From Candidatus Scatocola faecipullorum (lineage in GTDB: Bacteria > Pseudomonadota > Alphaproteobacteria > RF32 > CAG-239): DNA of 63,720 bases. Shown one piece after another: positions 12,009 to 20,722 of this stretch (the stretch's first letter is position 1; each line of letters starts with the position of its first letter). The notes under the pieces were generated by a model. The model made no database searches, was not told where the DNA came from, and saw only the letters and a program-made list of their open reading frames with translations. The stretch lies in the NCBI GenBank assembly GCA_018714685.1, contig DVNC01000050.1:1-63720 (forward strand). Direction: 5' to 3'. The position numbers and the translations under genes are program-made.

Positions 12009-12527
12009 TCAGTCTTTGTCATGAACGTCATGAAGCTTCTTCTCATGGCGGTCACGGCGCATGTCATGACGGGCTTTCCTGGCTTCATGGCGCTTTTTCA
12101 TTTCTTCATGATGCCGGGCTTTGATGTCTTTAAGCTTTTCTTTCTGCTCCGGAGTCAGAATTTTTTCAAACTCCAGCATATTGTCTTCACGCAGCTTATC
12201 CATCTTCTCACGAATGTCTTTCATCTCCTCAAACAGCGGTTTAAGCTTTTCACGGCCTTCTTTGCGGATTTTCTCGGCCTGCTCCTGCTGCTCTTTTGTC
12301 AGTCCCAAATCGTCCGCCAGTTTTTTAGACATCTTTTTCTCCATCTTTTCCATTTTCTTCTCCATCGCTTTATCTGCACCCGGCGGCGGAGGAGGAGGCA
12401 GCATTTCATCTCCGTGATGCGGCGGCGGAGGCGGCAGCGGCATATCATCGGCAGCCTGAACATTCAGGGCGCCCAAAGCCATAACGCTGAAACAAACGGC
12501 AGTTAATAAAACTTTCTTCATTATCAT
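12009..12527 (-). CDS. Spy/CpxP-family periplasmic chaperone
   Basis: Signal peptide, Pro/His-rich N-terminus, two LTxxQ motifs (LGLTKEQ, ILTPEQ). Confidence 0.88.
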   Translation of the reverse strand: MIMKKVLLTAVCFSVMALGALNVQAADDMPLPPPPPHHGDEMLPPPPPPGADKAMEKKMEKMEKKMSKKLADDLGLTKEQQEQAEKIRKEGREKLKPLFEEMKDIREKMDKLREDNMLEFEKILTPEQKEKLKDIKARHHEEMKKRHEARKARHDMRRDRHEKKLHDVHDKD

Positions 12528-13018
12528 TCTCCTTTTAACGGTTGTAACACTTCGCTCAAAAGTTTCCGAGCATTAAAGAGTCTGGATTTGATGGTTCCGA
12601 CCGGATCGCCGGTCTTTTTGGCAATCTGCTCATAACTCATCTCTTCAAACTCAAACAGAATAATCACCTGGCGCAGCTTTTTCGGCAGAGTGTCCACGGC
12701 CTTCAGAATAATTTTCTGGCGCTCTCTGGCATCAAACCGCTCTTCGATTTTTCCGCCGACGGCCACTTTTTCCAAAATCGATTCGTCACCTGCTTTGCGC
12801 AGCTCGGCCCGGTGCTGACTGGATTTCAGATAATCGCGGCAGACATTGGCAGCCAAAGCGCTTATCCACTGAACAAACTTCCCTTCTTCATGATAGCGGT
12901 CCAGATTCCGCCAGGTCTTGATATAAACCTCTTGTTCGATGTCTTCATTATACGAGCCGGTCAATTTTTTGATAATTGCCTTAATCCGGCCCTGATGCGC
13001 TGCAATAATTTCTTTCAT
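12524..13018 (-). CDS. ECF RNA polymerase sigma factor
   Basis: EDIEQEVYIK.W, F..WI..LA.N..RDY (region 2); MSYEQIA...G.PVGTIKSRLFNAR (region 4). Confidence 0.95.
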   Translation of the reverse strand: MKEIIAAHQGRIKAIIKKLTGSYNEDIEQEVYIKTWRNLDRYHEEGKFVQWISALAANVCRDYLKSSQHRAELRKAGDESILEKVAVGGKIEERFDARERQKIILKAVDTLPKKLRQVIILFEFEEMSYEQIAKKTGDPVGTIKSRLFNARKLLSEVLQPLKGE

Positions 13019-13279
13019 TTAGCCGACCATCAACAAGCCGTATTCGTCAACCGGCAAGCCCATATCTTCAATAACCGAACCTTCTTCTATCTGCGCCACC
13101 TGATTTTCAAACTCCATATCCGGCAGCAGGGTATAGGTGTTGTATTTCTGCGGCCACAAGCTGCTCATCATCACCACGCACACCAGCATTCCGAGTGTTG
13201 CTTTAATCCGGTTGTTGCGGCGCTTTCGGGCAAAATACAGCGGCTTGGCCTCCTGTAACAAACGAGAAATGTCATCCAT
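13019..13279 (-). CDS. Small single-pass membrane protein, putative anti-sigma factor
   Basis: 86 aa, basic patch then TM helix; stop abuts sigma start; AAGGAG SD. Confidence 0.65.
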   Translation of the reverse strand: MDDISRLLQEAKPLYFARKRRNNRIKATLGMLVCVVMMSSLWPQKYNTYTLLPDMEFENQVAQIEEGSVIEDMGLPVDEYGLLMVG

Positions 13280-13695: not shown

Positions 13696-13731
13696 AAATA
13701 AAACTCCCTGTTTTTTTAAGTCTGACACTTC

Positions 13732-13761
13732 TTAAAACGAACGTTTTTTCTTTTTTGTTCA
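13732..13761 (-). promoter_or_regulatory. Candidate ECF-sigma promoter 2
   Basis: Minus strand TGAAC-N17-CGTTTTAA, same spacing as 13301-13330. Confidence 0.55.
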
Positions 13762-13859
13762 AAATATTTTTTAATCCCGCGTTTTTCCTTCCCGTCCCTC
13801 ACTCGTTGTCCGCCCTCCGCCATTGCTCTGATAACCATATAATTCATGTCCTTTCTCCG

Positions 13860-13971
13860 TGTCATTACCCGGCTTGACTGGATAACCAGTGCTCCCTCTT
13901 CTGTCATTACCCGGCTTGACCGGATAACCAGTGCTCCCTCCCCTGTCATTACCCGGCTTGACCGGGTAATC
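13860..13971 (+). repeat. Three REP-like palindromes, 42-bp period
   Basis: TGTCATTACCCGGCTTGAC(C/T)GG(A/G)TAA at 13860, 13902, 13944; third copy is the perfect palindrome ATTACCCGG-CTTGA-CCGGGTAAT. Confidence 0.85.
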
Positions 13972-14092
13972 TGAATTTATACGCCTTTCCGGTTTTATCC
14001 GAACATTCCGCTCAAACCGGAACATAATAAAAAAACAGCCGGATATATCAATCAAACTTAAAATCATCTCATGGCCTTACATAAATTTCCCC

Positions 14093-14121
14093 TTGCAATT
14101 TAGCCGGCTCTCATTTACAGT
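14093..14121 (+). promoter_or_regulatory. Candidate sigma70 promoter for structured RNA unit 1
   Basis: TTGCAA-N17-TACAGT. Confidence 0.5.
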
Positions 14122-14127
14122 AGAACC

Positions 14128-14340
14128 AGCTTTTAGGCAAGGTAAGTCCGGTTTCGTCCGAACCCCAAACCTGATTAACCGTGAGAGCGGGCGGGAACCT
14201 AGTAATTCTTTCATCAGTTACAAGACCCTCTCATGTGAGGGAGCCTCCAATATAAGGCGGCTTCCGCACGAATAAGGAGGGCTGTCCGACTGGTACAGTT
14301 ACTAGCTCCCTCACACCTTTCAGGTCTGAGGGTTTTGTTT
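14128..14340 (+). ncRNA. Unassigned structured RNA unit 1, ends in intrinsic terminator
   Basis: CTAGTAA(14199-205)/TTACTAG(14299-305); TGTGAGGGAGC(14234-44)/GCTCCCTCACA(14305-15); CCCTCA..TGAGGG+TTTTGTTT terminator (14308-14340). Confidence 0.5.
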
Positions 14341-14405
14341 TGATGGCAGCTCGAAACAAATAAAACCTGATTAAGCTGCTGAATTTTATAAACACGGTAT
14401 TGGCT

Positions 14406-14435
14406 TTGTAAAATTCTTAAGTTATAACATATAAT
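14406..14435 (+). promoter_or_regulatory. Candidate sigma70 promoter for unit 2/HTH operon
   Basis: TTGTAA-N18-TATAAT (perfect -10 at 14430-14435). Confidence 0.5.
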
Positions 14436-14441
14436 AATTCA

Positions 14442-14654
14442 GTGTGGACGGTTTGAAACCCCGACACAGATAAATATGTTACATACCCAACGCAGCAGGC
14501 GTTAATCTGCACTCGTACCCTTTTTAAGGGGAGGAGTATTGCGAATACCCGTACCGTGCCGGCTTCGTCCGGCACGGATACGGTAATAAGCATAACTGTA
14601 TATGGGTATGTACAGGGTTTCAGCTCCTCCCGCCTTTTGAAAGGATAGGTTGTT
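14442..14654 (+). ncRNA. Unassigned structured RNA unit 2 / 5' leader of HTH operon
   Basis: TGAAACCC(14454-61)/GGGTTTCA(14615-22); TACATACCCA(14480-89)/TGGGTATGTA(14603-12); GGGAGGAG(14529-36)/CTCCTCCC(14624-31); long CCGTGCCGG/CCGGCACGG hairpin. Confidence 0.5.
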
Positions 14655-14900
14655 ATGCAAGCTGATTTGTCCCATTTTATCATTGAAGATAAGCAAAATC
14701 TCGGCTGGAGATTTCACTGGCTGCGTGCCGAACAGCAGGAGCCGATTGATATCTGCGCCCAAAAACTCAATGTTTCCGTTGACGTGATTGATAAGATTGA
14801 AAGCGGACAATTTGACAGTCCTCAAGTCAATCTGGACATCTTAATCCGTTATCTCGCACTTTACGGCGAAAAGTTCCGCCTCAGCCTCGGAGACGACTAA
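14655..14900 (+). CDS. XRE-family helix-turn-helix protein
   Basis: LGWRFHWLRAEQ...ICAQKLNVSVDVIDKIESG pattern; SD AGGATAGG. Confidence 0.8.
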   Translation: MQADLSHFIIEDKQNLGWRFHWLRAEQQEPIDICAQKLNVSVDVIDKIESGQFDSPQVNLDILIRYLALYGEKFRLSLGDD

Positions 14901-15190
14901 TGGACGACAGATATATTTTTCACTGGAAAGAGCTCCCTTTTGACGGTGCTTATTACCTGGCGGAAGAACTTTATTCCGCCCGGCGGCAGAAAAAACTCAG
15001 CCTGGAGGAAGTCAGCCGGGCCACAGGCATTCCGCCGGTTCGGATAGACGCTCAGGAAGTTATGTCGGCGGACATAGATTTCCATATCATCGCGCGATTA
15101 TTGGATTTTTATCGGATTAAACTGGGTTTGAGCAAAGGTTTTTTTCCCGGCTTGCCGCAAAACTATCAAAAAAAATATTTCCGCAATTAA
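14900..15190 (+). CDS. XRE-family helix-turn-helix protein
   Basis: LAEELYSARRQKKLSLEEVSRATGIP; TAATG stop/start coupling with the upstream HTH gene. Confidence 0.8.
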   Translation: MDDRYIFHWKELPFDGAYYLAEELYSARRQKKLSLEEVSRATGIPPVRIDAQEVMSADIDFHIIARLLDFYRIKLGLSKGFFPGLPQNYQKKYFRN

Positions 15191-20646: not shown

Positions 20647-20722
20647 GGGAGTTTAGCTCAGCTGGAAGAGCATCTCGTTTACACCGAGAGGGTCGGGAGT
20701 TCGAACCTCTCAACTCCCACCA
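20647..20722 (+). tRNA. tRNA-Val(TAC)
   Basis: GGGAGTT/AACTCCC acceptor, TCTCG-TTTACAC-CGAGA, GGGAG-TTCGAAC-CTCTC, CCA. Confidence 0.96.

Follow-up and report, generated by a model that had tools for sequence, protein, structure and literature searches.

Two divergent sRNA-Xcc1 family RNAs in tandem, and their probable role as leaders of a small regulator operon, in Candidatus Scatocola faecipullorum

What are the two structured RNA units that stand in tandem before a pair of small genes in Candidatus Scatocola faecipullorum? We analyzed a stretch of 63,720 nucleotides (nt) of contig DVNC01000050.1, hereafter the window. One of its intergenic regions (13729-14654, 930 nt) holds both units in the same orientation as two overlapping small open reading frames (ORFs) located 3' of the region. 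A preliminary description, made from the letters alone, had reported a set of elements shared by both units, two pairings (X with X' and Y with Y') in pseudoknot order and no match to any RNA known to its author, and had proposed a new cis-regulatory or small-RNA motif. We wondered whether the units are really new, whether the pairings are maintained, and what the RNAs might do. We found that both units are divergent members of the sRNA-Xcc1 family (Rfam RF02221), and they probably act as on/off leaders for the pair of small regulator genes.

Two members of the sRNA-Xcc1 family

At its gathering thresholds, Rfam detected only tRNAs in the window and nothing in the region of the two units. At a relaxed threshold, a 1.2-kb scan aligned unit 1 (14235-14322) with RF02221 over model positions 1-87 of 87 (28 bits, E 0.021). 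We built a covariance model, R1, from 37 non-redundant cores. Its sources were 46 RF02221 matches taken with their flanks, and G002a and G051a, each of at least 53 bits, are among its members (G000 designates the window's own genome, 1.74 Mb; G004 is a congeneric metagenome-assembled genome (MAG) titled uncultured mouse-gut alphaproteobacterium; other G numbers are other genomes). The cassette under study and its paralogs were left out of the model. In this cassette, a promoter box precedes unit 1, a spacer that holds another promoter box leads to unit 2, and the two ORFs come last. The cassette is known in three copies: that of the window, a second full copy in the same genome (G000:C11, L014) and a third in G004 (C3, L020). 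The flanks differ in each copy.

Run over both strands of the window with filters off, R1 returned exactly two significant matches, unit 1 (14235-14328, 47.7 bits, E 2.5e-9) and unit 2 (14528-14645, 35.0 bits, E 2.7e-6; 34.4 bits in a 157-kb search), both aligned to model positions 1-89 of 89. The next-best match (20677-20721, - strand) was not significant at 14 bits. It is the antisense of the T-arm/acceptor end of the tRNA at 20647-20719 and reflects the resemblance of the family's 3' end (UUCGAAC-stem-RCC) to tRNA. In the 157-kb search, R1 recovered 6 of the 6 units of the three cassettes. Because R1 finds exactly the two units in the window and all six in the cassettes, the units are homologous to each other and to the sRNA-Xcc1 family. 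Both are divergent members of that family. The homology of the two units is thus confirmed by an independent model, but the claim that they match nothing known is contradicted by the full-length, sub-threshold RF02221 match and by the recovery of both units with R1. A cis-regulatory or small-RNA role remains likely while the novelty is lost in part: the Rfam score lies below the cut-off, and the relationship is clear from R1. Within the same bacterial family, G002 (56 bits) and G051 (58 bits) have members above the Rfam cut-off.

In APSE phages a known sRNA-Xcc1 copy precedes an ORF6N gene, and in cassettes of Xanthomonas one precedes the toxin gene symE. The RNA is ~87 nt long, was found in integron cassettes of Xanthomonas campestris, is described as trans-acting with an unknown target, and has five homologs in tandem in a Xylella island (PMC12189769). 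Its experimental detection is credited to Chen et al. 2011, as cited in PMC12189769. Our units share with sRNA-Xcc1 the three-way junction, that is, a closing stem, hairpin 1 (H1) with an AAUA../GAAUAA internal loop, hairpin 2 (H2), a junction strand and a CaCC-UUU tail. They also share the position 5' of, and co-oriented with, a small gene (symE or ORF6N genes in the known copies) and, as in Xylella, the tandem arrangement. They differ in that unit 2 has a 31-nt insertion in H1 and that both units are chromosomal rather than in an integron or phage. Moreover, the Rfam model and the literature consulted here present sRNA-Xcc1 as a stand-alone trans-acting small RNA (sRNA) and make no mention of the 5' X/b1 domain, of anti-Y or of the overlap with the terminator, all of which we report below. 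A literature search found no paper connecting sRNA-Xcc1 with an a1/b1-type leader or a terminator switch.

Pairing between each core and its own leader

Direct reading of the sequence located all the ordered elements of both units that had been listed in the preliminary description. Compared with dinucleotide shuffles, the folds of both units are more stable (z -3.2 and -3.8), and the units contain G.U pairs that are compatible only with RNA from the + strand, in agreement with structured RNAs on that strand. All features of the two units below are on this strand.

Unit 1 starts with a promoter-like site, P1 (14093-14121), made of a -35 box TTGCAA (14093-14098), a 17-nt spacer and a -10 box TACAGT (14116-14121). 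Alignment A1 shows the same box in the two paralogous cassettes, and other family copies in G000 have TTGCAA-N17-TAnAAT. The 5' leader (14128-14198) comprises a variable hairpin region and a conserved GTGAGAGCGGGCGGGAAC (alignment A1). This segment resembles Y and is paired with the Y' region in the nested minimum free energy (MFE) fold, so it may be a further partner of Y'. Next come GGGCGGGAACC (14189-14199), X (CTAGTAA, 14199-14205) and a site that we call b1 (ATCAGTTACA, 14213-14222). An anti-Y hairpin (14226-14241) pairs CCCTC (14226-14230) with GAGGG (14237-14241) at -8.9 kcal/mol (RNAfold) and takes up the 5' strand of the closing stem. Other family members have an analogous, longer anti-Y (~13 bp) that in many cases pairs with Y and also with the 5' strand of H1. 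The sRNA-Xcc1-like core (14235-14317) is closed by a 9-bp stem (14235-14243 with 14306-14314). It contains H1 (14245-14280, internal loop AAUAUAAGG/CACGAAUAA), H2 (the CTGT..GTACAG hairpin, 14282-14298), the junction strand J, which is X' (TTACTAG, 14299-14305), and an ACC tail (14315-14317). Y (TGTGAGGGAGC, 14234-14244) and Y' (GCTCCCTCACA, 14305-14315) form 11 bp, and CCTTTCAGG follows at 14316-14324.

A predicted intrinsic terminator (14308-14341) reads CCCTCA-C-ACCT TTC AGGT-C-TGAGGG, then TTTTGTTTT. It has 10 bp and an RNAfold energy of -13.7 kcal/mol, is invariant across the three cassettes, and was missed by a simple scan because of its 1x1 mismatch. The terminator and Y' have 8 nt in common (14308-14315). 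As unit 1 has its own promoter and terminator, it is predicted to be a self-contained promoter-to-terminator gene.

Unit 2 has a promoter-like site, P2 (14400-14435), with a -35 box TTGGCT (14400-14405), 17 nt and a -10 box TATAAC (14423-14428). The form TTGGC(T/A)-N17-TATAA(C/A) is found in all three cassettes, being TTGGCA-N17-TATAAA in both paralogs (alignment A1); an overlapping TTGTAA-N18-TATAAT (14406-14435) is specific to the window copy. X (TGAAACCC, 14454-14461) has its partner X' (GGGTTTCA) in the junction strand J (14615-14622), and b1 (TACATACCCA, 14480-14489) is a perfect 10-nt complement of the H2 loop (14603-14611), with a duplex z of -4.7 against shuffles. The anti-Y hairpin (14518-14530) pairs CCCUU (14518-14522) with AAGGG (14526-14530) at -5.3 kcal/mol (RNAfold). 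The core, which R1 recovers, spans 14529-14634. It contains Y (GGGAGGAG, 14529-14536), whose partner is Y' (CTCCTCCC, 14624-14631), H1 with an AAUACC../..UAAUAA loop and the inserted hairpin, H2 (14596-14615) and a GCC tail (14632-14634). At the position that corresponds to the terminator of unit 1, unit 2 has the ribosome-binding site (RBS) region of the first ORF (14633-14654). A CCUU/AAGG hairpin (14633-14644) covers the Shine-Dalgarno sequence AAGGA (14641-14645) in the RNAfold prediction, and with Y' free it can be extended by CCU (14626-14628) with AGG (14647-14649). This modeled hairpin would mask the RBS when Y' is released. Judging from the layout, unit 2 may head the transcript of the two ORFs, with possible read-through from unit 1.

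Are these pairings maintained? Compensatory changes keep both X/X' and Y/Y' in the two paralogous cassettes, so the X..Y..X'Y' order is a pseudoknot-type topology maintained by covariation, as had been suggested. Between cassette copies, X/X' of unit 1 changes from CTAGTAA/TTACTAG to GTAGCAA/TTGCTAC and that of unit 2 from TGAAACCC/GGGTTTCA to CGAAAACC/GGTTTTCG. The fifth pair of H1 is C-G, U.G or U-A across copies. RNAalifold on the three copies detected compensatory changes in X:X' and also in an additional helix, absent from the preliminary description, which pairs b1 of unit 1 (14213-14222) with the 5' strand plus loop of H2 (14283-14294). This helix has 10 pairs with three two-sided changes (36/115, 38/113 and 39/112 region) and U.G to C-G changes, and its formation excludes that of H2. 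Unit 2 has the equivalent pairing: in the paralogs its b1 becomes TTCCTACACA and TTCCAACACA, and the loops have changed to match.

We also compared self with non-self complementarity without any alignment, as the longest perfect complement found in the 126 nt upstream of each of 53 non-redundant family members. The mean perfect complement of this upstream stretch was 8.3 nt to the member's own junction versus 5.4 nt to those of other members (n=53), and 8.5 versus 5.25 nt to H2; neither value was reached in 10000 permutations (0/10000). In a 56-row alignment, itself model-fitted, 91% of the cells in core helices were paired versus 75% in shuffles and 34-42% with slid partners, and 17 of the 21 core pairs showed double changes. 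X of unit 1 is the sole perfect bipartite site for the unit 1 core in the genome. In general, each core's only perfect two-part site in the 1.74-Mb genome is its own leader, and no cross-addressing was found between the unit 1 core and the unit 2 sites or in reverse. Among 31 near-identical members of a "lipoprotein type", the H2 loop is hypervariable, with a normalized edit distance of 0.50 versus 0.03-0.17 elsewhere.

A two-state leader and its rivals

How might such RNAs work? We propose, with a probability of roughly 0.6, that the units are two self-addressed two-state leader RNAs in tandem which, from their own promoters, gate a two-gene operon of XRE-type helix-turn-helix (HTH) proteins in cis. 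Each module is composed of a 3' core, the part that Rfam knows as sRNA-Xcc1 (three-way junction, 9-bp Y:Y' and RCC), and a 5' leader bearing X and b1. Since X and b1 of the leader are complementary to X' of the core and to its H2 site, b', the RNA addresses itself. In the closed state, Y:Y' would be formed and the core would be clamped to its own leader through X:X' and b1:b'. In the open state, the upstream anti-Y would capture Y and free Y', which could then enter the terminator of unit 1 (14308-14341) or the RBS-masking hairpin of unit 2 (14626-14649). We infer that the RNA acts in cis and that the closed state is on, so that transcription or translation would continue into the XRE-HTH genes, the open state being off. 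The switch might be triggered by RNase P, which would process the RNA at the tRNA-like stem and RCC, by a protein on the conserved AAUA/GAAUAA loop, or by a free processed core acting on new transcripts.

The competing use of Y and Y' is built into the units: Y' is common to the closing stem and the terminator, and Y is common to the stem and anti-Y, so that these uses are mutually exclusive. Predicted nested folds of unit 1 lie within ~5 kcal/mol of each other (X:X' plus b1:b' -77.5, terminator -73.7, Y:Y' -72.6). The units resemble terminator/antiterminator leader switches in having four competing segments (anti-Y, Y, Y' and the 3' strand of the terminator). The family resembles them in its near-equal predicted alternative folds and in combining one sensor domain with terminator and RBS-masking versions. 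They differ from such switches in having no leader peptide or known ligand; the sensor is instead an antisense-RNA scaffold with locus-specific address helices. Attenuation by a leader peptide was rejected, as there is no plausible leader ORF and a 60-aa TTG ORF at 14093 begins inside the -35 box.

Several points count against this proposal. Unit 1 falls short of the RF02221 gathering score (28 versus 53 bits), and unit 2 was matched by no Rfam model in 13700-14900 even at E up to 10. Because b1 of unit 1 takes in the H2 stem as well as the loop, the "clamp" and the sRNA-Xcc1 fold cannot fully coexist there. Nested energies cannot score the pseudoknotted closed state and so do not rank the two states. 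The RBS-masking hairpin of unit 2 is weak (-5 kcal/mol), and the genes downstream of family members are too varied to suggest one signal.

The strongest rival is that the units are true c4-type trans-acting antisense RNAs. In this reading RNase P excises the core by a cut at the 5' end of Y, and the 3' end lies either behind RCC or at the terminator. The excised core then binds X/b1 of new leaders from the same locus in trans, giving locus-specific feedback, and unit 1 is a free-standing sRNA gene. Both the c4 RNA (Rfam C4, RF01695) and a separate c4-a1b1 motif were listed by Weinberg et al. 2010 (PMC2864571). With its a1/b1 leader, c4 belongs to the immI operon of phages P1 and P7. In phage P1, c4 represses icd-ant (PMC8198154), and work on its processing by RNase P appears in the reference list of PMC4919922. 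The P1 record AF234172 annotates a1 at -88 and b1 at -74 from the c4 RNA, a2/b2 just after the RNA and icd 50 nt downstream. In the P1 sequence we read b' (CACTAAC) 5' of a' (CTGTCAA), and a 9-bp closing stem followed by ACC.

P1 c4 and our units thus have the same order of promoter, a1, b1 and RNA, with b' 5' of a' inside the RNA. In both, the upstream sites (X, which is a1-like, and b1 here) are located 36-90 nt 5' of the RNA and are complementary to a'/b' in the order a1-b1-b'-a'. Both have a 9-bp closing stem with an RCC tail (ACC 14315-14317, GCC 14632-14634), a tRNA-like feature of RNase P substrates. Of 54 distinct family rows, 47 have RCC after the closing stem, and in 51 the stem begins with G. 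As in P1, the RNA appears from the sequence layout to be co-transcribed with the gene that it precedes. Beyond this tRNA-like stem, a c4-type action is favored by four canonical members (G051, G002, G014 and G093), which keep a second b site 10-20 nt before the start codon, G002 also keeping an a copy. An orphan core in G017 fits the X/b1 sites 3' of it better than the adjoining core does. The hypervariable H2 loop would be expected if at least 16 copies must avoid cross-talk, and unit 1 is equipped with a promoter-like site and a strong predicted terminator of its own.

However, the window units lack the a2/b2 target sites that c4 has at the RBS. We found none downstream of them by an exact-complement test, by RNAduplex against shuffles or by a genome-wide bipartite pattern search; with 8 tests made, a duplex of unit 2 with codons 17-28 of the first ORF (p~0.01) was put down to chance. 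Nor do the lipoprotein-type members have such sites downstream. Pairing in cis would always be kinetically favored over pairing in trans. The units also have what c4 does not, a terminator or RBS hairpin overlapping Y' plus an anti-Y competitor, and their downstream genes encode HTH proteins instead of icd-ant. R1 was not significant on P1 c4 (7.3 bits, E 0.55), and Rfam C4, c4-2 and isrK had no match in 13700-14900 at E up to 10. In our comparison the resemblance to P1 c4 is architectural only, and homology at the level of the models is not demonstrated. We therefore consider the c4-type reading possible but doubtful.

Doublets and phage copies elsewhere in the family touch on the same subject. 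In the tandem doublets L061 (G017:C4, 450-541/716-807) and L066 (G003:C12, 812-903/1053-1143), the upstream core lacks its own X/b1 leader. In G017 this orphan core is a better fit to X (TAGAAAACC) and b1 (TATGTGTTTA) of the downstream unit than the core of that unit is. L055 (G051:C1:748500-754500) is a prophage-like locus with three tandem 994-bp repeats. In each repeat a canonical sRNA-Xcc1 (56-58 bits) is accompanied by two ORFs, one of 104 aa and one for a Rha/ORF6N-like antirepressor, and across the repeats the H2 loop covaries with a site before the RBS (CUUUUGUUAG/CUAACAAAAG versus UGUUUUAG/CUAAAACA).

Could the units instead sense a ligand? In a riboswitch, the H1 loop (AAUA.AAGG / GAAUAAG) and the junction would form a pocket, binding would close Y:Y' as a P1-like helix, and the tandem arrangement would sharpen the response. 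The use of one core with two expression platforms, terminator and RBS masking, fits this idea, as do the high conservation of the H1 loop sequences across subtypes and the recurrence of tandem arrangements. On the contrary, long and freely varying Watson-Crick "address" helices would be unusual in a ligand pocket, copies without an ORF exist (the C50 doublet, see below), and so do phage antirepressor operons with c4-like target sites. There is also no match to an Rfam riboswitch. The riboswitch reading is less likely because the downstream genes share no metabolic, transport or other common theme, and we regard it as unlikely. Even when E values up to 10 were allowed, Rfam gave no match to a riboswitch, ribozyme, tmRNA or RNase P in the region, and weak matches to snR65, mir-3492, PreQ1, Twister-P5 and SQ2397 were dismissed as noise. 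The idea of an IS110/IS1111 bridge (seek) RNA was dropped as well, with no recombinase nearby and no support among the listed papers that mention sRNA-Xcc1.

Finally, it is highly improbable that the module is non-functional as RNA, a repeated DNA element (like a miniature inverted-repeat transposable element or a repetitive extragenic palindrome (REP), or a recombination site) whose inverted repeats resemble helices: it is multi-copy, with some copies at contig ends (C10:142-225, C5:142-225) and REP-like repeats just upstream of the window copy (13860-13985), but copies are co-oriented with an upstream promoter and a downstream RBS and ORF, show G.U wobble pairs and strand-specific covariation, have a terminator with a U-tract after the cores, and match over full length the covariance model of an experimentally detected sRNA family.

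Cassette, family and meaning

The genes that the two-state leaders would control are ORF1 (14655-14900, +, 81 aa) and ORF2 (14900-15190, +, 96 aa), which overlap at TAATG. Each resembles weakly an XRE-type HTH protein, with sub-threshold Pfam matches to HTH_25/HTH_3, and the two are distantly similar to each other (hhalign E 3e-4). A protein search gave only relatives of at least 85% identity, and a scan of genome contigs gave only G004. Likewise, BLAST of the cassette leader against 60 relatives matched only G004, and a covariance model was needed for a wider search. The widespread part of the cassette is the RNA, not the ORF proteins. A 12-nt exact repeat, AAACCTGATTAA, occurs in the leader of unit 1 (14167-14178) and in the spacer (14363-14374), as checked by eye, and a GCTGAATT motif retained in both paralogs lies ~20 nt 5' of the second promoter box. 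Both are possible operators for the HTH pair.

The neighbors of the cassette are an extracytoplasmic function (ECF) sigma operon, a small secreted protein, the two HTH ORFs and a U32 peptidase. Beside it in the window, an operon of the envelope-stress type (12009-13279, -) encodes an LTXXQ/Spy-like periplasmic protein (12009-12527, -), the ECF sigma factor (12524-13018, -) and a small putative anti-sigma ORF (13019-13279, -). Just 5' of the cassette, three head-to-tail copies of a REP-like palindromic element (TGTCATTACCCGGCTTGACCGGRTAAYC...) repeat with a period of 42 nt (13860-13985). Related TGTCATGCTCCGGCTTGACCGGAGCATCC elements are found upstream of the family member G000:C35:44313 and in G014.

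How far does the family extend? Of 301 genomes of the class, 49 gave RF02221 matches (8 above the cut-off). In the window's bacterial family, where the RNA is hugely expanded, 23 of the 24 searched genomes gave matches, with 1-17 per genome. The window's own genome has 16 R1 matches. Three of its copies (G000:C10:142-225, C5:142-225 and C55:5202-5289) lie at most ~150 nt from contig ends, and near-identical small HTH genes follow. The repeated modules probably break the assembly, and the copy number may therefore exceed 16. A second tandem doublet in this genome (G000:C50:4102-4470, -) has a TTGCAA-N17-TATGAT-type promoter before each unit and no convincing ORF within 350 nt; from its sequence, it may consist of free-standing copies.

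Full copies share one order. The 5' part begins with a promoter-like box and a variable hairpin; X, displayed on a short hairpin or segment, comes next, and b1 and anti-Y complete this part. The core follows with Y, H1 (AAUA../GAAUAA internal loop), H2 (loop b'), the junction X' and Y', and then RCC, a terminator overlapping Y', a U-tract and, 30-50 nt on, an RBS and ORF. X lies 36-93 nt before the core, mostly 55-90, and b1 mostly 45-67 nt before it. The genes 3' of family members encode lipoproteins, pilin-like, outer-membrane-type, small HTH and antirepressor-like proteins. Leaders L076, L087, L088 and L092 (G015) stand before genes whose products have a type IV prepilin-like N-terminus (GRSMIEMLGVLAIxGVLS). 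With prepilin-like genes after several leaders and lipobox lipoproteins after most others, the family's main association is with envelope proteins and small HTH regulators.

Taken together, these results lead us to suggest, tentatively, that the alphaproteobacterial branch of the family, both units included, may be a new kind of portable self-addressed gene switch. A c4-type RNA would be fused to a two-part mimic of its target and to a terminator or RBS mask, with the hypervariable b1/b' (and X/X') as the address of each locus. Here a heterodimeric XRE-HTH regulator would be under the control of two of these switches in series, each with its own promoter. If so, the hypervariable b1/b' and X/X' helices would keep at least 16 paralogous switches per cell from cross-talk. 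The regulator may also feed back on both switches, the conserved CTGATTA/CTGAATT motifs near both promoters being candidate operators.

For more than 10 years, sRNA-Xcc1 has stood in Rfam as a "trans-acting sRNA" without a known target or mechanism. In this locus and its relatives, the catalogued 87-nt RNA is only the 3' half of a larger module that is laid out like the immunity RNA c4 of P1. In gut Alphaproteobacteria with tiny genomes this module has multiplied (at least 16 copies in 1.7 Mb), with terminators before genes for surface proteins and small regulators. About 1% of the intergenic space in these MAGs can now be labeled, and the copies offer a naturally orthogonal set of RNA "addresses". 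An unexplained RNA family thereby becomes a directly testable switch model.

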